DNA of 56,325 nt, counting the filler, from Catajapyx aquilonaris (Eukaryota), in the NCBI GenBank assembly GCA_000934665.2. It is 3 parts of 3 records of this genome, joined end to end, with 100 filler letters (N's around TTAATTAATTAA, not from the genome) between each part and the next. Parts side by side here need not be neighbours in the genome. Positions count along the whole stretch, not along the records: positions 18,798 to 37,531 come from KZ539569.1; 2 more parts are not named here. One strand, given 5' to 3'. Below, one piece after another: positions 12,201-37,631 of this stretch. Position numbers and translations under genes: made by a program. Below the pieces are notes generated by a model, which was not told the DNA's origin, did not search any database, and saw only the letters and a list, made by a program, of their open reading frames with translations. Position 1 is the stretch's first letter, and each line of letters opens with the position of its first letter.

Positions 12201-14554
12201 TACTATATCGCTCAAAAACATGGAGACGATTTTGCATTTGACTCAAGTGCGGCCTGCACTTGAATCGAATGCAACATCGTCTCTATGTTGTTGAGTGATA
12301 TAGTACATCAGTGTCAAAAATGTGGATGATGATTAATATTTAATCCAAGGTTTTCATTTACTTTCACAGTGAGGAGGACAGAAAGCAACAAGTCCTGAAG
12401 CGCTACTGGGCTGATGAGATGAAGCCAAGGTGTGTTCTCAAAGAATTTGTGTGGAGTTGTCCTCCTGTCACTAACCATGTTTTGTATGGGCAGGTTCCTT
12501 TCCAAGTTTGAGGAGAAGATGAAGGGGATATCTCCTAAAGTCACCTACATCCACAAGGAAGACCCCAAGATAGAGCAAAGTCTGGGTCTCAAAGGTAAGT
12601 GTGTTAGGAGTTTTGCATTGTACGTCTGTAGTTGTAACCGTCTCTTTCTTTTCCCACTTCCAGAGAAGAATAAGTTTGGAATGTTTGTAGATTCTGCCAC
12701 AGGGCAGAAGGAAGGGGCATCATCTTCATTGGGGAACAAGTGGAAGGTCATTGGAGGAGATTCGATGACTTCGAGGTAAGTGTGTTCATATTCAAAGTAG
12801 GATGAATGTCTTATAAAAGTCTGTTATAAACAGGCAGTTTGTATTTGCGAATGATGAGACATTTACTGTGACAATCTGGTGTAATGGTAGAGGGATATTT
12901 TTCTTGATGAAGGAACTATGAAACTAATATAATTAATGGGAAACCCTTATTATTATCTGATGGCAATAATTGCCAGTATTGTAATTACATCCTAGGCTTT
13001 TAAACATTTGGCAGCTAATTAAAACATTGTTGACTTTTCAGGATGGAGAAGCCAGACATGGAGAAGCGAGTGGTGAGCATGAAGAAGGATGCTGCTGACT
13101 TTGAAAAAGTTCGTGCCCTGCAAGAGAAGTGGGCTACTGTCGATAAAGGTCTGAGTGACTGGGAGACTGACACCAAGCCAGTAGGCATGAAGGAACGTAA
13201 ATTCAAAGAGATGGCTTCTACAGATGATGAAAAGCATAACCTTCCAGGATCTGTCAAAGGGCTAGGCCTAAGCATGGATGACAGTCTGGTGAAAACAAAG
13301 GAGATGCTGGGCAAACTGGAGACGGGGTACCGCATGGGAAAGAAATCCACAGATGATGATGACGCACAGACTGGGTTAGCTGAAGGAATGATTGGCACAG
13401 GGAAGATAGCGCCCATTAAGATTGAGATGGGAAGTGCAGCCAAGGCGGCTGTGGCAGCTGTGAAAGCAGCTGCAGCCAAGGCGGAGGCAGAGAAGGAAGA
13501 ACGTTCTCGCTCGTCAGGTGAACGTTCCACGTCTCGCTCGTACACACGCAGCCGATCTCGCTCCTCCTCGTATTCACGCCGCTCACGCTCCCCTACAGGG
13601 CGGCGTCCACGTCATCGTTCCCGTTCCTACTCGCACTCCCGTTATTCACGCTCCAGATCTCGTGGGAGGTATCGTTCTCGCTCTCGCTCCTCCTCTTATG
13701 CTGCTACTGGTGAGCGCCGCCACCGATCTCGTTCCCGCTCATACTATAGTCGTGAGTCAGGCAGGTCCCGCTCACATGATTCCAGGTCTCGTTCAGGATC
13801 TCGTGGAAGATACAGATCACGTTCACGTGACAGGTACCACGACAGATCTGGAAGCCGCAGCCCAAGCCGTGATCGCCGTCATCATCACTACAACCCACAG
13901 CATTACAATCCACGAGGTCGCTATATGCATCGGGGTTACCACCAGCGTGGTAACAGGCGCCCTTACATGCGAATGCGAGGCCGAGGCCGAGGCCGTGGAT
14001 TCTACCAACGAGGAGGTGGATTCAACCCCAGGGGTGGATATCGAGGAAATTATCACCGTCCTGATGGTGGTGGTGGAGGAGGAGGAGGAGGAGGAGGAGG
14101 AGGACGGTACTATAAGAAGTACGACAAGTACGAACGCTACGACCATCGACGCAGCCCATCTGGAGGCACTCCCCGGGGTGAAAGAGGTGAGGGTAGGGAG
14201 GAGAAGCGAGAGGAGGATGACCGGATGAAACAGGTGCAGGAGGCAAAGCGCAAGATTGACGAGGAGTTGGGTGGTAAGAAGGAAGACGACGATGATGGGA
14301 GTGGCACTGAGGAGATGGACGACTCAGATTACGTGGATCGGAAGACGTTTGGTGGAAAGTGGGCCGAAGATGGAGGGGAGGAGCCCTCTAGTACTGGTAA
14401 TGGTGGTGGAGAGAACAGCAAGCCCAAGGACAAGATGGAGATACCCGAGACAAGCCTGGAGGAAATGGAGGAATTTTTGAACAAGGTGAAGCAGCAGAAG
14501 AAGGAAGAGATGAAAGAAAGAAATAAAGAGTTTATGAAGCCAGCCCTGTGGTAA
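3250..14554 (+). CDS. TTC14: Tetratricopeptide repeat protein 14 (S1 domain + TPR repeats + Lys/Ser-rich, Pro-rich and RS/RGG C-terminus), about 1461 aa
   Basis: Manually spliced GT-AG exons keep frame (sum 4386 nt): 3250-3401, 3558-3679, 5339-5415, 7013-7135, 7204-7415, 7855-8007, 8155-8346, 8564-8686, 9120-9464, 9787-10223, 10338-10388, 10460-10598, 10680-10768, 10897-11050, 11131-11220, 11839-11979, 12370-12429, 12494-12594, 12664-12775, 13042-14554. Diagnostic peptides: [45 protein letters not shown]1-like LEVGDIVIG...[11 protein letters not shown], and TPRs [29 protein letters not shown] and [21 protein letters not shown]. Confidence 0.93.
5547..6295 (-). mobile_element. Internally deleted Tc1/mariner element in TTC14 intron 3
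   Basis: About 100-bp TIRs starting CAGGGTGTTCCAGAGTT, with TA on both sides. Minus strand carries transposase remnants: N-terminal ...[26 protein letters not shown] joined to C-terminal [10 protein letters not shown]...[16 protein letters not shown]. Confidence 0.9.
12198..12308. repeat. Imperfect palindrome (MITE-like hairpin) in a TTC14 intron
   Basis: ATGTACTATATCGCTCAAAAACATGGAGACGAT... pairs with ...ATCGTCTCTATGTTGTTGAGTGATATAGTACAT. Confidence 0.75.
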
Positions 14555-18697: not shown

Positions 18698-18797
18698 NNN
18701 NNNNNNNNNNNNNNNNNNNNNNNNNNNNNNNNNNNNNNNNNTTAATTAATTAANNNNNNNNNNNNNNNNNNNNNNNNNNNNNNNNNNNNNNNNNNNN
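18698..18797. other. Artificial 100-nt scaffold linker (N...TTAATTAATTAA...N)
   Basis: A six-frame stop spacer sits at the centre of the N run; an identical structure occurs at 37532-37631. Confidence 0.92.
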
Positions 18798-19767
18798 GGG
18801 GGCAATCAGGGCCCGCCGCAGGCGAATTTTTTTCGGTTCAAGGTCACAACCCTTCCTCGCGACCCCAAATTTGGAGTCACGACCGCAAAATTGCACTGTT
18901 CTAGAGGGTTTTTGCGAGTTTTCCACCCGTTTTTTTTTCTTTTGTTCCTTTTTGCCCCCCCTAAATCCGCCACTGGTAATACGTAATGATTACGTATAGG
19001 CTAACTATTAATGTAATGATTTCTCATTTTCATTGTTTTTGTGCCATACTGATTACTGACACTGTGACTGCGAGAGTCTGACAGTGAGATAGTACGAGCT
19101 AAGACCCCGAATTGATTGGATCGAACCCGCTTTCTTACGTCTGATAGAATGTAGGTTATAGACGTTAGGCCTATTATAGATTTGTGGTTTTCCTCAAAAT
19201 TTTCTAAAACTCGTAGGAAAATTCCAGCGCCCCTTTGCTCGGGGGCCCTGGGGCAGTCGCCCCACCTGCCCCTATGGTAGTTACGCCACTGACACGTACG
19301 TTATTCAAAAGAAATATCCCAAGGGACCACAGACATTGGTATCTTATAGCAAAGGTTTCTTATATCCAAATGCATAGGCCACACATGGAAGTATGGCAGG
19401 ACCAGCCTTTTGTGTTTTCTGTAACCAAGGGTTGCTGATAGCTAGGCTCTCCCGGAGTCGACTGTATTGTAGTGAGTGGATATACCGTCTCTGGGCACAT
19501 GCTACCGATACTTTTGCAACATTGTAGCTTCTAACATTGCTTAATTCAAGGCTTCATTCTGTAAATGGTTGCATTAGGAAATTATTACGATCCAGTGTAT
19601 ATTTCAAAGAGGACGAATTTCAACTAATAATATAAAGTCAATACTACATGTGCACTGGGTGAGGGGTTCCAACCACATGATATTGCTGGTGCTGAGAAAA
19701 ATTTATAGTTGATATGCCAAGGAAGGACTTGTGTCAATCATTCATGGATACTTGGTCACCTTTGCAG

Positions 19768-20129
19768 ACATGGGATGGCACAAAATCTCTGCTATCCAAC
19801 CTGGAGGCACTGCTTGGAACTACACTGCCCTCCCAGGAGTTCATTGCAGAGAATGAAATTGAGTGTGGGATTTGCCTATCATTCATTCTGGACAACCAGT
19901 CTCCAAGTGAAGTATGCCCTGAGAAACGTTGCAATCGTGTCTACCATCTTGTATGTTTATTTGAGGTATGCACCAAAATGATTGTAAAGGAAAATGAATT
20001 TGGTTCATGCTGTTTTTCTCCCTTTTCTAGTGGCTGGTGAATGTACCAACAAGGAAAAGGACCAATGACACTGTATTTGGTCCTTGCCCATATTGTGAAA
20101 CTCTCATGGTATGCAAGGAAATAAAGTAG
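19768..20129 (+). CDS. FANCL: E3 ubiquitin ligase FANCL, last two exons only (RING-variant domain)
   Basis: Exon 19768-19965: TWDGTKSLLSNLEALL...ECGICLSFILDNQSPSEVCPEKRCNRVYHLVCLFE. Exon 20031-20129: WLVNVPTRKRTNDTVFGPCPYCETLMVCKEIK*. Matches the FANCL C-terminal pattern CGIC...VC...C...HxxCLxEW...FGxCPYC. An alternative acceptor is possible at 19709. Confidence 0.88.
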
Positions 20130-20156
20130 TTGTGTTACACCCATAAATTAACCCCA

Positions 20157-20162
20157 TTTATT
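20157..20162 (-). terminator. AATAAA polyadenylation signal downstream of CYB5RL
   Basis: TTTATT on + strand about 98 nt past the CYB5RL stop codon. Confidence 0.6.
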
Positions 20163-20259
20163 CAGGCACTCTTTAGCACAAAATTCCAACAACAGGCTTG
20201 ATAAAGGCTCAAAGCAAGCTCGAAGGAATTACCGAACAACTTGGAACCTCATAACAATC

Positions 20260-21120
20260 TCAAAATACATGCACGAACTCAGGTTTTGAGCCCAATTCCA
20301 TTAGGTACAGCTTGACATCATGTTCATAAGACTTGGTACCACATATCACAAATTTATATCCATCTGCACATTTGCCTAGTTCATCTGCTAAGTCAGACTT
20401 TCCAATATGTCCAAAGTATACATCCTCTCCATACTTAGGCTTAAGTGATGGCTCATCACTAAGGAACCATTTTGATGTGAAGTTCCAGTATGATCCAAAT
20501 TGCTTGATGCGCTCACGAAACAATAGGTCTTCATACTTTCGACAAGAGTACAATAGGCGGAGCACTGTGTCATCACCCTCATCATCTAGCACTGTTTCAA
20601 TCAGACGAATCATTGGAGCAATGCCAGTACCAGCTGCAAGCATGACAATGCGCTTGCAGGTATTTGGTGTGTATGTAAATGTACCATATGGTCCTTTCCA
20701 CAAAACAGTATCATTGACCTGTAGTGTACGTATATATTGCGACATACGTCCATCGTGGTACAATTTAATGGCCACATCAAATCCATTTGAGTTTATTGCA
20801 ACAGGTGTGTATGCACGCCGAATCAGGTTGTACTCCATCATCATATGCTGCGCTGGTTTAATATGTAGTTTAACATTAGCATTAAATCTATACAAGTTTG
20901 TGTCATGAGACATTTTTGATATTGATACAACCCGAAAAGGTGTTGGCTCAATTAGGGTGATTGCATCATTGGGTATATTGCATTGCCGTTTCCATGCGGC
21001 TAATTTTTTTGCATATATGTCGTACACACATTCGGTGCACCCACCACCACAGCACATGTCAGAAGTTGGTTCTACCGGCTCATCATTTGGTGGCATTTCC
21101 ATCGCACTTCTTTGTGTCAT
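20260..21120 (-). CDS. CYB5RL: NADH-cytochrome b5 reductase-like protein, intronless (in-frame ATGs at 21120, 21102, 21096)
   Basis: N-terminal oxidoreductase-like motif PVEPTSDMCCGGGCTECVYDIY, FAD-binding RAYTPV and GRMS, NAD-binding AAGTGIAPM, C-terminal ICG...VHVF. Uninterrupted ORF of 286 aa. Confidence 0.92.
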   Translation of the reverse strand: MTQRSAMEMPPNDEPVEPTSDMCCGGGCTECVYDIYAKKLAAWKRQCNIPNDAITLIEPTPFRVVSISKMSHDTNLYRFNANVKLHIKPAQHMMMEYNLIRRAYTPVAINSNGFDVAIKLYHDGRMSQYIRTLQVNDTVLWKGPYGTFTYTPNTCKRIVMLAAGTGIAPMIRLIETVLDDEGDDTVLRLLYSCRKYEDLLFRERIKQFGSYWNFTSKWFLSDEPSLKPKYGEDVYFGHIGKSDLADELGKCADGYKFVICGTKSYEHDVKLYLMELGSKPEFVHVF

Positions 21121-21580
21121 CCCAATCTATTTTAAAGCGGGTAACCCTAGGGCTAGTTGCCAATATATTACGGGTCAGTTTCTCAAACTGTGGCACTGTT
21201 GGTTGGGTTTCACGTAGCTCGCCATCTGAATAGTCATTGTTCACGTAGTATCCAACCCGTATAAATTCCTGACTGCGGTATGAGCAAGTCAAGAGTACAA
21301 CAGTAACACCAACTGCATCAGCCACAGGAATTTTGTCAACCTGAGGTGGATCAGCCTGAAACACAAACATATGGCGACCTTCAGGTATGGGTCCTACATA
21401 CACAGTGTCCAAAATTTGGTCATATTCCTCACTCTCAGCTGAACCAACATATATTATCCTCCATTCCAAATCCTCCTGAAGGTCTTCAATGCACTCAAAG
21501 GTTATCTCAAACTGGAATGGGTTCAGGAATGGCGAAGGATTGTCCAGGACAACCACATTGCACACATGAACTTTGGCCAT
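21083..21580 (-). CDS. ASF1: Histone H3-H4 chaperone ASF1, intronless, 165 aa
   Basis: MAKVHVCNVVVLDNPSPFLNPFQFEITFECIEDLQEDLEWRIIYVGSAESEEYDQILD...VGVTVVLLTCSYRSQEFIRVGYYVNNDY...PRVTRFKIDWD is the canonical ASF1 core. Confidence 0.98.
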   Translation of the reverse strand: MAKVHVCNVVVLDNPSPFLNPFQFEITFECIEDLQEDLEWRIIYVGSAESEEYDQILDTVYVGPIPEGRHMFVFQADPPQVDKIPVADAVGVTVVLLTCSYRSQEFIRVGYYVNNDYSDGELRETQPTVPQFEKLTRNILATSPRVTRFKIDWDDTKKCDGNATK

Positions 21581-21618
21581 TGGTACATTGCACTGTTGCT
21601 ATTGTACTGGCAATATTT

Positions 21619-24600
21619 CTATTGTCGGTAGAGGGTCCATACACAAGTCTGTCCTATTCCTGTTGAACTGACCACGTGGTAACCTTTTTCTTCTAGTTTG
21701 TCCAGAACCACACGTGGAGGAAGTTGTGTCTTGTACACCGGACTGAAAAAAATATGAAAATTTAGGGATACAACAACAAACTGGCATGACATGTCTTCAG
21801 GGATGCAAGGTATTTTGCAACAGGTAACCAGTATCAAGAAAAATCATTGACCAATGTTCACATGAATTCACTTTGTGAGGATACTGCAGAAGTTTGATTC
21901 CAGATAGTATAGTCTCAGATTTTTTACTGTTTCTTTAGCTCATGCTTCTCTCATTTTTGTAAGAATTTGTGTGACTTCTTCCTATGCTAGCAGGTACAGC
22001 AAAAATTCTCATGTCTGAGAGCATGTCCGAAATGAGGATTGTGTGGTTCAAAAAATCCAGAAGAACCAACTTAGTATGATGGAACATTCTGAAGTGATTT
22101 TTATCAACTAAGGATAATAATGGATGCCATGTGATAGGCCTACTTGGTCCTTTTACGCAATTTACGGGATCATCTCTTCAATAACTGACTTTAATAAAAT
22201 TCCCTAGGCTGTGATGGATTTTGATTGTGGGTGGAAATGGGATAACCCCGAGAAAACCCACGCGAATATGGAGAGAACCCATTGCACTTCTTTCCACACA
22301 TGTATCCTCTGTCCAATCTGGGGATCAAACTCAGGACCTCAGAGGTGGAAGGCCTAACCACTACACCACTGTGCTGCCCTGAAGTATTTGGTATTACATA
22401 TGTTTATTTTTCTCTTGACTGCATAATGTGCACCATGTTTTAACTTAACTTTTGCAGCAATTTTGTTTCGAATCAAAATTGGAAGAAGAAGAAAATGAAA
22501 CAAACCCTGAATATTGTGGCACATCTTGTGATTGGGACCTCAAGCTAAGAAAAAAAAAGAAATGACTGCAACTACTTCCACATGGCTTATTTCAGGATTG
22601 TAAATCATTATTTTTGGGGCCGTCCATAATCCGCGCGGACAGATTTTTTCACTTTTTTACCTCCCCCCCTCCCCTTTGCGGACAGAAGCGGACAATATCT
22701 TACCTCCCCCCCTAAAAATTGCGCGGACATGGCCTCCTTGACCCCCCCCCCCCNNNNNNNNNNNNNNNNNNNNNNNNNNNNNNNNNNNNNNNNNNNNNNN
22801 NNNNNNNNNNNNNNNNNNNNNNNNNNNNNNNNNNNNNNNNNNNNNCCCCCCCTTCACTTGTCCGCGCGGATTATGGACGGCCCCTTTATAAATGCATAAT
22901 GTGCACCTAGAGTAATTCTGACTCAAGCTTACTCCCATTCTGTGAAAGTTGTTCCTAATAAAAGTAATAATATTAGTTGAAAAAATGACTCAATTTTTCA
23001 ATATACAGGGTGTTCCAAAAAGGTGTTCCCAGTAAAGAACCAATGCAATTCCGGAAGTATTCCATATATTTTATTCAAATTTGCCGGGAAGGTGGCACAT
23101 AATTATGATCAAGTTTTTGTACAAAAAGTCACACCTCCACATGTCCACCCTGGGGTCGAAGACACAGCTTAAACCGTTCTTCAGCTGCTCGCCAGGTGTA
23201 GCTTGTACGGATACATCTTCAGCATTTTCCGTACGATGCGGTGCATCGAACTCAGTGGGATATCCATCTCCAGGGATCCCTGACGCAAAGACTTCTGCAG
23301 ACTCTTCAACATGGCTTCCCTCACCTGTTCAACACGACAAGTTGCAGGTGGACGCCAAGAGCTCTTGCCATGGACGATGCAGCCTGTCGCTTCGAAACTC
23401 TGGAACCACTTAAGGATGAACTTGTTGGAGGGTGGGTCTTTGCCATTGAGTTGCCGGAACTCTCTTCGCACTCTAGTCACACTTTTCAGTTCAGCGAAAA
23501 AGACTACACACTTTGCTTTTACTGAAGATGTATCTGTACAAGCTATACACCTGGCGAGCTGCTGAAGAACGGTTTAAGCTGTGTCTTCGACGCCAGGGTG
23601 GACATGTGGAGGTGTGACTTTTTGTACAAAAACTTGATCATATGTGCCACCTTCCCTGCAAATTTGAATAAAATATATGGAATACTTCCGGAACTGCATT
23701 GGTTCTTTACTGGGAACACCTTTTTGGAACACCCTGTACTTTCCCTGAGTTACGAAATCATGAGCTTGAACACTTCAATGCAATTTTTTGGTACTTGAAA
23801 TGTCCGCAGCAGGTGCTGGAAACTTTCCAGAATTTTAATTGTCAATTTTATGGAAATACCAATTGATGCCCAACTTTTAGTTGCATAGAGCTATCTGAAA
23901 GTAATATAATTAATAAAATTAATTCTTATTTAAAAATGTGGCAATGTTCAAATGGGTTATTACAATGGAGAAAAATGAAGGTGCACATGCCCCAGTTGCA
24001 TGTTCAAAACGGACCACGAAAGGGACAATGAAAAATGACACCCTACCCAAGAAGGCTCGAGTTGGATAGAATAGGCATTTAAAATATACAGTGTTCCAAG
24101 TTTGTGGGCCATTTTTAGTTAGGAAATTTTGCTCGAATCTGGTATTTTCTGTAGCTTGTTGTGCCCCTAACCATGTGCCATATTCTAAAGCAACTGCTAT
24201 ATTCGACCACCTGAAGTAATGGGGCAACAGGATCAGCAACAAGCTACTAATAAATAAGTACTTCAGGTGATATTAGTGATTTAACTAAAAATTACCCACG
24301 AACTTGGAACACCCTGTATATATAAAGTGTGTCTGAAGTATATGGTTCGCTTTAGTTATAGGAAATTTCACTTGAAGCTGTTATTTTTTTATAGCTTGTT
24401 GCGCCCCGATTGAGGTGACCTATATCCTCCTGAGACCCAAGAAAAACTTTTTAACACAATGTCAGTTCCTGTTGCATTTTCTTAACCAATTGTCAATAAG
24501 AAACTTGAAAAAAATTAGTTCTAAAATATTGACCAAAATAATGACAAAAAAAAGAATGTCCTGTTAGGTCTCAATTGCTGCCACAAAAGCAAAACGGATG

Positions 24601-29590: not shown

Positions 29591-30761
29591 TTATTGTCCT
29601 TCTTCTACGACACTGCTCTCTTTTTTGTTTGCTGTAGCAAAAACTTGGCAAATGTCACTTCTGAACCGGTCATTTAAGGCAAAGCAGATCCAAGGTCTGG
29701 ATGCAGCCGGTACAAAATGCAGTAGCAGCAAAAGGTGATTCACTAGCCGAAACCATGGTGGACGGGCATCACTGCTGGAAACCACTAGTTCGTCGACAGT
29801 GACGTAAGAATTCAGCACTTGCCACGGAAACGCCAAGAAGAAGGAGTGAAGAAGAAGCCCCAGGGTCATCCTTCCCATCTGCTGGTCTACTACGTCCTCT
29901 TTTTCTGCAACCTCCACACTGTATTCGTCGTCTTCCTCATGCGAGCGCTTGGGACATACCCTTCTTCGCAGTGCATCGATGGCTGCAGCGGCGATCAGAA
30001 AAAGAGGGACGACATTCTGAAGAGCAGTGCATGTGACGGTGTAGAGAAAGTACTGGAGTGATCGTCCCAGCACGGTGAAATCTTGAAACAGTAGAGCGCA
30101 AGTCACACCTGACGAAACCTGCCAAATAAAGTTTGGTGAGAGACAGTGCGATGCAACTCTAGTCCTGCATAATTCCTCTAGGATCGTATAGGAAATGTCA
30201 GCAGCAGTGATACCACTATTAAAGCAGAGTCTACCATATACTTACACCTTCGTCAAATGATGGTGCTCCTTGAATCTTGAGGTCGCTCATGAGAAAGGCA
30301 GGAACACTGAGCGACACTCCCAGAAGCCATGGTGCTGTCAATGCAAGTGACGAAGAAGCAACTGTAGCTCCAGGGACGGCTCCTAGGCCAAGTCCAGCCA
30401 AAGTGTACGTCGTGACAGTCCATAGCACCACCCATGATGAAGAGTGTACTTTGCACACCCACTTGCCGAACACCCAGACCCCGCTGGATTGGGCCAACAC
30501 CGTGAAGGGTACCACCAGAGCCAGGGTCAGCAGGTCAGTCAGGGAGAGCATCATCAGCCATGAAGAAGTTGAAGACGGCTTGGATTTGGAGGTCGATCGT
30601 CCCAACGGTAGCAGCACCCACAGGAAGAGGATGTTACCCACCACTCCGGCCCCAAGCAGAATGGTCAAATACAAACTGATCACCACTGGCTCTTGAGGTA
30701 ACGAAACCTGTAGCACACTGGCGTTGTCCACAGTCATGTTCCACTCAGACACGTTAGACAT
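29591..30761 (-). CDS. Orphan class A (rhodopsin-like) GPCR, 2 exons, about 347 aa
   Basis: Exon 30761-30246 (N-glycosylation sequons NVS/NMT/NAS, TM1 GVVGNIL, TM2 LSLTDLL...VPF, WVFGKWVCK, TM4 W...SVP) joins in phase 0 to exon 30118-29591 (ECL2 Cys, TM5 NVVPL, TM6 FFLAFPW, TM7 SRPWIC, helix 8 NDRFR). Confidence 0.85.
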
Positions 30762-31840
30762 CGTCTGCGATGTAGGCCCACCAGAAGTCAAGTGAGCACA
30801 TTGGCAGAAGAAAGCCCAAAGCACGACCTACATATGAGTGTGGAACCATATGTGCACTGATCCTTTCCCACGCTGTGACACAGACCCCGAACTTGATACG
30901 TTTGGGCATGAGGGGAGAGCTCCCGAGGAAGAAAAATATATCTCCTTATATTACCACAAGTTGACTCACTACGCGACTACGGATATGACCCTGAATATCA
31001 ACACATCAAATAGTAGGCTACTGCGATAAAGCATTTAAATCCTAGATAGCCTACAGCCTGCTGGTATTTGAACTGGCGATATTCTAGGAGGACAGTATAA
31101 TGCATGGTTGGTATAATGCAAAGGATCTTGCAATGAACTACTGATGTCAAGGCCACGTCACAGCATTTTAAAATGTATATCAACTATGTATTCCACTGTC
31201 CAGAGTTTAAAAAACAACAACTTATACCCCCTATTTAAATACAAACTAGATGTTTAGAGTCGTAGCCTACAGGCCATTTTGGTTAGGTCACGGTATAAGT
31301 TATTTGCTAATATGCTGATAGAATATTATAACAAGTTAGTGTGTTAAATTTTAAAAATCGCGCTAAAGGCAAAAAGAGATCGTTCACCTCTTCCTCAGCC
31401 AGCTGAGAAAGTGACTCAACCCCCATAAAAGCTGCCACGTCATCCACGGCAGTCAAATGCGAAGACATATTTCGAGAAAAACATACCTCCGTATTCTAAC
31501 GGTTTTCTTCTTTAATTTGCCACCAACATAAAATATGAAAATTGTTCTATGATAACAAGACATGCCTGTTTTGTTCCTTCTTTTGGGGTTTTCAAAATAT
31601 TCATTATTTAGGTCAATAAAAATTCATAAGTCTGGCGAAATATGGGGTTTTAACTGCAGAGATGTAAACATAATTTTAAAATTGCAACAAGGAGCCCCAA
31701 ATCGGTCATTCTCTTTTTAATGGAACTTGGAAGTAACCTATTATAATTTTCCCCTGACTTGTGACTCAGAAAATTGGAAAACACGAACGCCCATGGTCAT
31801 TTGCACTTAGAATATTAGATTCATATTCTGAACTAACGTA

Positions 31841-33485: not shown

Positions 33486-34228
33486 CAGAGTGTTCCAAAA
33501 AGTGTTCCCAGTAAAGAACCAATGCAGTTCCGGAAGTATTCCATAATTATATTTTATTCAAATTTGCCAGGAAGGTGGCACATATAATATATTATGATCA
33601 AGTTTTTGTACAAAAAGTCACACCTCCACATGTCCACCCTGGCGTCGAAGACACAGCTTAAACCGTTCTTCAGCTGCTCGCCAGGTGTAGCATGTACGGA
33701 TACATCTCCAGCATTTTCCGTACGATGCGGTGCATCGAACTCAGTGGGATACCTATCCATCTCCAGGGATCCCCGACGCAGGGTCTTCTGCGGACTCTTC
33801 AACATGGCTTCCCTCACCTGTTCAACACGATAAGTTGCAGGTGGACGCCCAGAGCTCTTACCATGGACGATGCAGCCTGTCGAAACTCCGGAACCACTTA
33901 AGGATGGACTTGTTGGAGGGTGGGTCTTTGCCATAGAGTCGCCGGAACTCTCTTCGCACTCTAGTGACACTTTTCAGTTCAGCGAAAAAGAGTAGGCCTA
34001 CACACTTTGCTTTTACTGAAGATGTATCTGTACAAGCTATACACCTGGCGAGCTGCTGAAGAACGGTTTAAGCTGTCTTCGACGCCTGGGTGGACATGTG
34101 GAGGTGTGACTTTTTGTACAAAAACTTGATCATATGTGCCACCTTCCCTGCAAATTTGAATAAAATATATGGAATACTTCCGGAACTGCATTGGTTCTTT
34201 ACTGGTACCACCTTTTTGGAACACCCTT
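33486..34228 (-). mobile_element. Second copy of the 23006-23736 Tc1/mariner deletion derivative
   Basis: Collinear and highly similar to 23006-23736 in both termini and internal transposase fragment, with small indels and a duplicated terminal TTTGGAACACC. Confidence 0.9.
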
Positions 34229-37531: not shown

Positions 37532-37631
37532 NNNNNNNNNNNNNNNNNNNNNNNNNNNNNNNNNNNNNNNNNNNNTTAATTAATTAANNNNNNNNNNNNN
37601 NNNNNNNNNNNNNNNNNNNNNNNNNNNNNNN
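37532..37631. other. Artificial 100-nt scaffold linker (N...TTAATTAATTAA...N)
   Basis: Same structure as 18698-18797. Confidence 0.92.

Follow-up and report, generated by a model that had tools for sequence, protein, structure and literature searches.

Overlapping ASF1 and CYB5RL reading frames in Catajapyx aquilonaris: probably a conserved two-protein messenger of the kind known from flies

How is a second protein translated when its reading frame begins inside the end of another gene on the same strand? The question is raised by a locus of Catajapyx aquilonaris (assembly GCA_000934665.2) at which the coding sequence (CDS) of the histone H3-H4 chaperone ASF1 overlaps that of CYB5RL (NADH-cytochrome b5 reductase-like), a predicted redox enzyme. 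We analysed the locus within a stretch of 56,325 nucleotides (nt; hereafter the window, meaning the whole stretch, filler included), which joins three parts of three genome records; the two genes lie in the part taken from KZ539569.1 (18,798 to 37,531). ASF1-CYB5RL is probably a conserved two-protein messenger of the kind known from flies. On the fuller reading, the two genes are one transcription unit, a conserved dicistronic gene older than C. aquilonaris, whose second open reading frame (ORF) is reached most likely by termination-coupled reinitiation; taken as a whole, this reading seems to us evenly poised between right and wrong. Both ORFs lie on the minus strand, lack introns and share one exon, with the following features around their junction.

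21083..21580, minus strand: ASF1 CDS, ATG at 21580, 165 amino acids (aa), core plus a 10-residue tail, intronless.
21080..21085, minus strand: tandem in-frame stops TGA TGA closing ASF1 (TGA 21085-21083, then TGA 21082-21080).
20260..21120, minus strand: CYB5RL CDS, ATG at 21120, 286 aa, intronless.
21083..21120, minus strand: overlap of the two ORFs, at most 38 nt, with CYB5RL in the +1 frame relative to ASF1.
21118..21120, minus strand: first CYB5RL ATG, context GGGATGA, 35 nt before the ASF1 stop.
21100..21102, minus strand: second CYB5RL ATG, with the most favourable context, GCGATGG, 17 nt before the ASF1 stop.
21094..21096, minus strand: third CYB5RL ATG, context GAAATGC, 11 nt before the ASF1 stop.
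21127..21129, minus strand: TAG that shuts the CYB5RL frame upstream, the frame opening only two codons before the first ATG.

The original prediction had described a +1 overlap of 38, 20 or 14 nt without naming the strand, and recomputation of coordinates and frames returned the same values; they apply, stop codon counted, to CYB5RL starts at 21120, 21102 and 21096, respectively. All three of these in-frame ATGs are indeed present within the ASF1 CDS, 5′ of the P..EP...CCG motif of CYB5RL. The first, which had been said to overlap ASF1 codon 154, spans codons 154/155: the CYB5RL start codons are embedded in the last codons of the ASF1 core, where GAT GAC yields ATG in the +1 frame. A fourth in-frame ATG, absent from that earlier account, occurs at 21057, 26 nt past the ASF1 stop and directly 5′ of the CCG motif. 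The Pfam Oxidored-like match begins at CYB5RL residue 13, the codon for which overlaps the ASF1 stop codon.

Both frames encode recognizable proteins. ASF1 residues 1-154 align with the entire Pfam profile PF04729 (ASF1_hist_chap; positions 1-154 of 154, E 3.4e-74, 248 bits versus a cut-off of 27), and the protein shares 78-88% identity with nine ASF1 proteins from arthropods, each 193-207 aa in length. Its start codon lies in the context ACCAATGG, with A at -3 and G at +4. The C-terminus is unusual, in that the window protein ends 10 residues past the core, whereas 9/9 aligned relatives run 28-45 residues further; the C-terminal tail of about 35-50 residues that is usual in arthropod ASF1, and that does not define the family, is absent here. 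The first tail residues retain weak similarity to those of a relative (DWDDTKKCDGNATK versus DWDDVKNSDTSAGK in P0030), and this similarity ends exactly at the stop. A tblastn search of the window with 12 tails, a weak test, revealed no tail exon elsewhere, its sole meaningful match being the known end at 21127-21086 and the rest noise. In other animals the ASF1 tail carries Tousled-like-kinase phosphorylation sites, and a tail-less ASF1 raises the question of how histone supply is regulated in C. aquilonaris.

From its sequence, CYB5RL looks functional. Three Pfam domains score above their curated cut-offs (Oxidored-like PF09791, E 1.1e-8; FAD_binding_6 PF00970, E 1.9e-17; NAD_binding_1 PF00175, E 3.2e-10), and the protein contains RAYTPV, AAGTGIAPM, ICGTKS and CCGGGC, instances of the cofactor motifs RxYTP, GTGIxP and C-terminal CG, and of the CCGxGC motif. 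The N-terminus, with 21 residues ahead of the CCG motif, is of the usual length for the family, and therefore no upstream coding exon is needed. Alternatively, the frame could be an untranslated or decaying passenger, a retrocopy in the ASF1 3′ untranslated region (UTR). Such an origin would account for the lack of introns, for an identity of just 33-47% to other animal CYB5RL proteins, and for an inter-domain linker that is shorter than in most relatives. However, the frame of 286 codons is intact with its three domains above threshold, every invariant alignment column is kept (15/15 in alignment A3), and the same arrangement persists with an intact ORF in a distant lineage (locus L004, described below); we consider a passenger improbable.

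The original prediction had also raised the possibility that a 1-nt assembly error hides a true fusion gene. Contigs of four sequencing runs were therefore compared with window positions 18800-22750, comprising X1, X2 and X4, DNA runs from a single sample that possibly served for the assembly itself, and X5, which derives from a different sample and a different study and for which the kind of run is not recorded. The X1, X2 and X4 contigs (3380-3381 nt each) cover 19263-22642 with 0 gaps, and record 29 of X5 aligns to 20138-21742 with 0 mismatches and 0 gaps. Between 19300 and 22300 no inserted or missing letters were found in the contigs of the four runs. In particular, the window sequence across 21040-21130 is matched, without indels, by the contigs of all four runs, including the run from an independent sample. 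Short of a systematic error common to the four, a concealed in-frame ASF1-CYB5RL fusion gene can for practical purposes be dismissed.

X5 provides evidence on the transcript as well. We infer that this run behaves as RNA, solely from its spliced contig for FANCL, the gene convergent with CYB5RL: X5 record 28 skips 19964-20028 (GT..AG, 65 nt), an intron that all three DNA runs retain, the joint being absent from X1, X2 and X4. The ends of the RNA-like contigs for CYB5RL (minus strand) and for FANCL (plus strand) lie at most 5 nt apart and overlap at 20138-20142, a common 3′ boundary. The transcript features are as follows.

20138..21742, minus strand: single exon with part of the 5′ leader, ASF1, CYB5RL and the 3′ UTR (X5 record 29).
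21743..21762, minus strand: 3′ splice site, AG at 21744-21743 plus pyrimidine tract; the X5 contig departs from the genome exactly at 21742, where a T-rich tract is followed by AG.
20157..20162, minus strand: AATAAA polyadenylation signal, 19 nt before the RNA-like contig end at 20138.
19768-19963 and 20029-20142, plus strand: last two exons of FANCL (X5 record 28; Pfam FANCL_C, E 3e-7).

Of the 1874 nt of record 29, 1605 nt follow the window colinearly through both ORFs, from 21742 to 20138. The remaining 269 nt extend beyond 21742 and match nothing within 18800-22750; an upstream 5′ exon joins at 21742. The CYB5RL 3′ UTR is 122 nt and ends after the AATAAA. Neither AATAAA nor ATTAAA occurs 3′ of the ASF1 stop as far as 20862, and therefore the ASF1 message must reach well into CYB5RL. 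Taken at face value, record 29 looks like a spliced, polyadenylated message with both ORFs in its last exon.

Is the pairing peculiar to C. aquilonaris? A search for longer ASF1-containing proteins returned three cladoceran sequences with EOG-type names, which we take to be automated gene predictions. In that of Daphnia magna (P0151), the first 163 ASF1 residues are followed by the middle of CYB5RL (PF04729 and PF00175); in that of Daphnia similis (P0152), the same 163 residues are followed by FANCL; and in that of Simocephalus serrulatus (P0150), ASF1 (PF04729) is the only Pfam domain. The two Daphnia sequences show neighbourhood rather than real fusion, P0151 being a gene-prediction splice.

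The arrangement itself was recovered from metagenome contigs, in which a profile scan yielded 80 loci; a scan with a single protein gave 74 pattern matches and 0 relatives. By tblastn, four loci (L001-L004) match most of CYB5RL (216-284 of 286 residues), and exactly one of the 80, L004, also contains ASF1. L004 is a daphniid-like contig of 2028 nt, with an ASF1 of 187 aa encoded in four exons (GT..AG introns of 62, 58 and 54 nt) and a tail identical to that of the cladoceran P0150. Its ASF1 stop, TAA, is followed by an 8-nt spacer, AGCTGAAA, and then by a CYB5RL ATG in the context AAAATGG, from which the ORF is open to the contig end, its frame being +2 with respect to ASF1 instead of +1. This CYB5RL shares 75% identity with the reductase portion of P0151 (106 aa compared) and only 34% with the CYB5RL of the window, and the two lineages are therefore far apart. 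As to whether the pairing is conserved in relatives, then, tight same-strand linkage recurs in L004, with an 8-nt gap instead of an overlap.

FANCL is convergent to CYB5RL in L002 too, an unrelated metagenome contig, as in the window, and CYB5RL is again intron-free (L002:1156-3428); no ASF1 occurs upstream of it in the 1155 nt present. The CYB5RL-FANCL linkage may predate the ASF1 linkage. On sequence evidence, the block ASF1 > CYB5RL > < FANCL is common, wholly or partly, to at least two distant lineages, and is not universal. Further traces of the pairing are slighter. An ASF1 of 198 aa (P0035) and a CYB5RL of 299 aa that is 43% identical to the window's (P0272) both come from a Logan contig of length 1909 nt and could be a third dicistronic transcript, which we offer as a lead only; P0056 and P0422 coincide likewise at 1368 nt, and because that length is too short to hold both ORFs, such coincidences can be chance. 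The two genes are found on contigs of identical, chromosome-scale length in Rhipicephalus microplus and likewise in Anabrus simplex, most likely one scaffold in each species, which says nothing on adjacency.

With both genes intact and paired in two lineages, the question becomes how ribosomes reach CYB5RL. One route named in the original prediction was a +1 frameshift giving an ASF1-CYB5RL fusion of about 440 aa, and the hypothetical product, about 438 aa, is close to that figure. A programmed shift would occur at AAA UGA U, the ASF1 stop, with the CYB5RL frame open through the whole overlap. A Lys codon directly ahead of a stop, as in the window, is reminiscent of +1 shift sites known from antizyme and Euplotes. 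Several observations speak against this route. The frame relation is +1 in the window versus +2 in L004, where CYB5RL has its own ATG behind the spacer, consistent with a free-standing start. An ASF1 domain was found in 0/16 of the CYB5RL relatives long enough for an extra domain among the best 150 representatives, and the sole ASF1-plus-reductase 'fusion' is the gene-prediction splice P0151. In the window, the CYB5RL N-terminus has a length normal for a free-standing protein, a second in-frame TGA stands right behind the first ASF1 stop, and no excess structure that might stimulate shifting is found in the 91 nt past that stop (z +0.50). Because the frame differs between lineages, L004 has a free-standing start, the stops are in tandem, no stimulatory structure was found and none of the 16 long relatives is fused, we regard a frameshift fusion as very improbable.

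A stronger contender is that CYB5RL is translated from its own monocistronic mRNA, which would either start inside ASF1 or be formed by alternative cis-splicing or spliced-leader trans-splicing to the AG at 21128-21127, the overlap then being an accident of packing. This AG belongs to the TAG that closes the CYB5RL frame upstream, and its surroundings, CCCGCTTTAAAATAG|ATTGGGATG, are acceptor-like, making it a candidate acceptor for cis- or trans-splicing, 6 nt ahead of the first ATG. Many dicistronic loci of flies also have monocistronic isoforms, according to PMC4528330. In addition, assembled contigs drop rare isoforms and do not show 5′ ends, and a filter removes some records. On the other side, no X5 contig joints were reported anywhere in 20142-21742, including at 21127, and the summed X5 depth is flat at 13.6 over 20252-21703; record 29 is therefore the only X5 contig there, which is weak evidence against an abundant alternative form, given the behaviour of contigs and filter just mentioned. 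The L004 sequence 5′ of the CYB5RL ATG is purine-rich, a poor acceptor. Moreover, a stop and a start that lie within 8 nt of each other, or overlap, in two lineages with CYB5RLs as divergent as these would be unexpected if the two proteins were translated independently. A separate message is a possibility to be taken seriously, and one that we expect to prove wrong rather than right.

We return to termination-coupled reinitiation. The distance from ASF1 stop to CYB5RL start is +8 nt in L004 and -11, -17 or -35 nt in the window, and in both cases the restart AUGs lie within about 30-40 nt of the stop of the first ORF. This closeness, common to both lineages, is a signature of termination-coupled reinitiation. 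The mechanism had been proposed in the original prediction; its geometry and the conserved proximity of stop and start fit, and from these we infer the mechanism itself. That ribosomes ending ASF1 restart at a CYB5RL AUG in this way appears to us slightly short of an even chance. In such a scheme, a spliced 5′ exon would be joined at 21742 to one exon bearing ASF1, CYB5RL and the 3′ UTR. Ribosomes finishing ASF1 at the tandem UGA UGA would remain bound to the message, backtrack by 11-35 nt and initiate anew at a CYB5RL AUG (any of the three), and CYB5RL output would be a fixed small fraction of that of ASF1.

Leaky scanning was considered as another way to the second ORF. Between the ASF1 AUG and the CYB5RL start there are 10 AUGs, counting all frames, and the L004 ASF1 coding sequence holds 18 internal ATGs. 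Because the ASF1 AUG is strong and the 10 internal AUGs would intervene, leaky scanning is unlikely.

Several results weigh against a conserved dicistronic unit with coupled reinitiation. Record 29 is assembled from short reads, and a contig spanning two genes does not show one transcript; given the ORF overlap, a pair of transcripts that overlap each other would also be assembled as a single contig. Three of the four metagenomic CYB5RL loci are without ASF1 in the upstream DNA available (365 nt in L001, 1242 nt in L002 and 144 nt in L003), which means that the pairing is restricted to certain lineages. The window yielded no specific reinitiation element, and Rfam returned 0 matches at E ≤ 1 over 20000-22700. 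Folding was compared with that of shuffled sequences in five tests in all, covering the window and L004, and the window overlap region folds no better than shuffles (z -0.03 and -0.51), as is true of the 91 nt past the stop. A UGGGA pentamer, the core of the calicivirus reinitiation motif, does occur at 21125-21121, and it carries no weight because conserved Trp-Asp codons of ASF1 force it. The 101 nt of L004 leading up to the ASF1 stop/CYB5RL start (L004:1230-1330) form a long hairpin (-27.9 kcal/mol, z -2.91, 1/200 shuffles), which could be a lineage-specific reinitiation element or chance.

A bolder version of the reinitiation model would make the pair an ancient arthropod dicistronic unit in which CYB5RL is an obligate second cistron: no ribosomes would translate it other than those fresh from termination on ASF1, which here would have to move backwards; this we think unlikely. 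Were it true, the locus would join a very small number of cellular examples of reinitiation downstream of a long ORF with two conserved, full-length products. An essential single-copy chromatin chaperone gene would be carrying a redox enzyme, and the locus would be a natural example of a stop-start distance changing in evolution, from +8 to -38 nt.

FlyBase holds 159 pairs of dicistronic protein-coding genes in Drosophila, about 2.5% of gene models, as given in PMC4528330. The present pair would be like them in placing two unrelated, full-length, conserved proteins in series on one processed arthropod mRNA, such that the downstream ORF would need non-standard initiation. It differs in that the ORFs overlap here and in that the pairing is common to a branchiopod lineage. 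The main text of that paper and its 12 searchable supplementary files (file 1 lying outside the search) contain 0 mentions of asf1, and no description of an ASF1-CYB5RL pair was found in full-text literature searches, judged partly on titles and abstracts. Dicistronic genes are thus of a known kind, and what is new is the ASF1-CYB5RL pair, its conservation across distant crustacean-like lineages and its overlap geometry.

As a precedent for the mechanism, the closest resemblance is to M2 of pneumoviruses such as respiratory syncytial virus (RSV), in which a long first ORF (M2-1) is likewise followed by a second (M2-2) in another frame. Natural distances do not exceed 32 nt, and ORF-2 was no longer translated when the distance had been lengthened to 72 nt (PMC3923131), to be set beside distances of 35, 17 and 11 nt in the window. 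However, M2 is a viral mRNA for which dependence on ORF-1 termination was shown experimentally, according to the same paper, whereas the present case would be a cellular one. M2 also needs additional ORF-1 sequences, of which no equivalent was identified in the window. More generally, according to the review PMC10275272, the start used for reinitiation behind a long ORF can lie near the stop or 5′ of it, and the distance rules for such reinitiation in cellular mRNAs are unknown. The locus shares with the termination upstream ribosomal binding sites (TURBS) of caliciviruses and influenza B a stop and restart within about 20-30 nt and a restart after a long ORF. TURBS are, however, folded elements with a motif complementary to 18S rRNA, whereas the window shows no significant structure and its sole UGGGA is dictated by the ASF1 protein (for TURBS, PMC10275272). 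Among human mRNAs with overlapping ORFs, 5/24 tested used coupled termination-reinitiation; except in MOCS2, their second ORFs encode uncharacterised products, whereas both proteins here are widely conserved and domain-complete (human data from PMC3923131). MOCS2 itself uses leaky scanning, by the same account, which the 10 intervening AUGs make unlikely here.

How might the arrangement have arisen? Introns are missing from CYB5RL in the window and from as much of the gene as L004 contains, in agreement with an ancient retrocopy that inserted immediately 3′ of the ASF1 stop and was retained as a second cistron. The window lineage would then have lost the ASF1 tail, with ASF1 coding introns absent, and the ORFs would have slid into an overlap of 14-38 nt. 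Reinitiation after long ORFs is well documented in viruses, and ASF1-CYB5RL is a useful cellular candidate. Since the spacing differs by lineage (8-nt gap versus 14-38 nt overlap), it offers a ready-made comparative and reporter system for distance rules. The locus also holds a warning for annotation: automated predictions already merge the neighbours into false fusions (ASF1 with the reductase, ASF1 with FANCL in Daphnia), and a pipeline that allows one ORF per mRNA would drop or truncate CYB5RL.

Two short upstream ORFs (uORFs) precede or overlap the ASF1 start.

21599..21640, minus strand: first uORF in the leader, ATG at 21640, 13 codons.
21523..21588, minus strand: second uORF, ATG at 21588, 21 codons, +1 frame, overlapping the ASF1 start codon.

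Because the uORF at 21588 overlaps the ASF1 start codon in another frame, translation of ASF1 itself may be uORF-regulated.

Elsewhere in the window, 22199-22353 and 18800-19330 are highly repeated elements, with summed DNA contig depths of 10,000-97,000 versus about 20-30 for the single-copy DNA on either side, and numerous contigs continue into dissimilar sequence at 22208, 22282 and 22353. Related ORF fragments with a common helix-turn-helix segment occur at 23181-23573 and 33554-33973, both on the minus strand (DUF4817, E 1.8e-4 for the first), and look like copies of transposon-derived sequence. The filler positions between parts, 18698-18797 and 37532-37631, are identical (44 N, 12 bases, 44 N), and other runs of N occupy 1563-1823 and 22754-22845. 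A rhodopsin-family receptor gene with at least two exons lies at 29591-30827 on the minus strand (7tm_1, E 3.7e-9 for the first). Finally, a 506-codon open frame at 13034-14554 on the plus strand, without a Pfam match and rich in Arg-Ser and Gly repeats, looks like an exon of an SR-type splicing-related protein.

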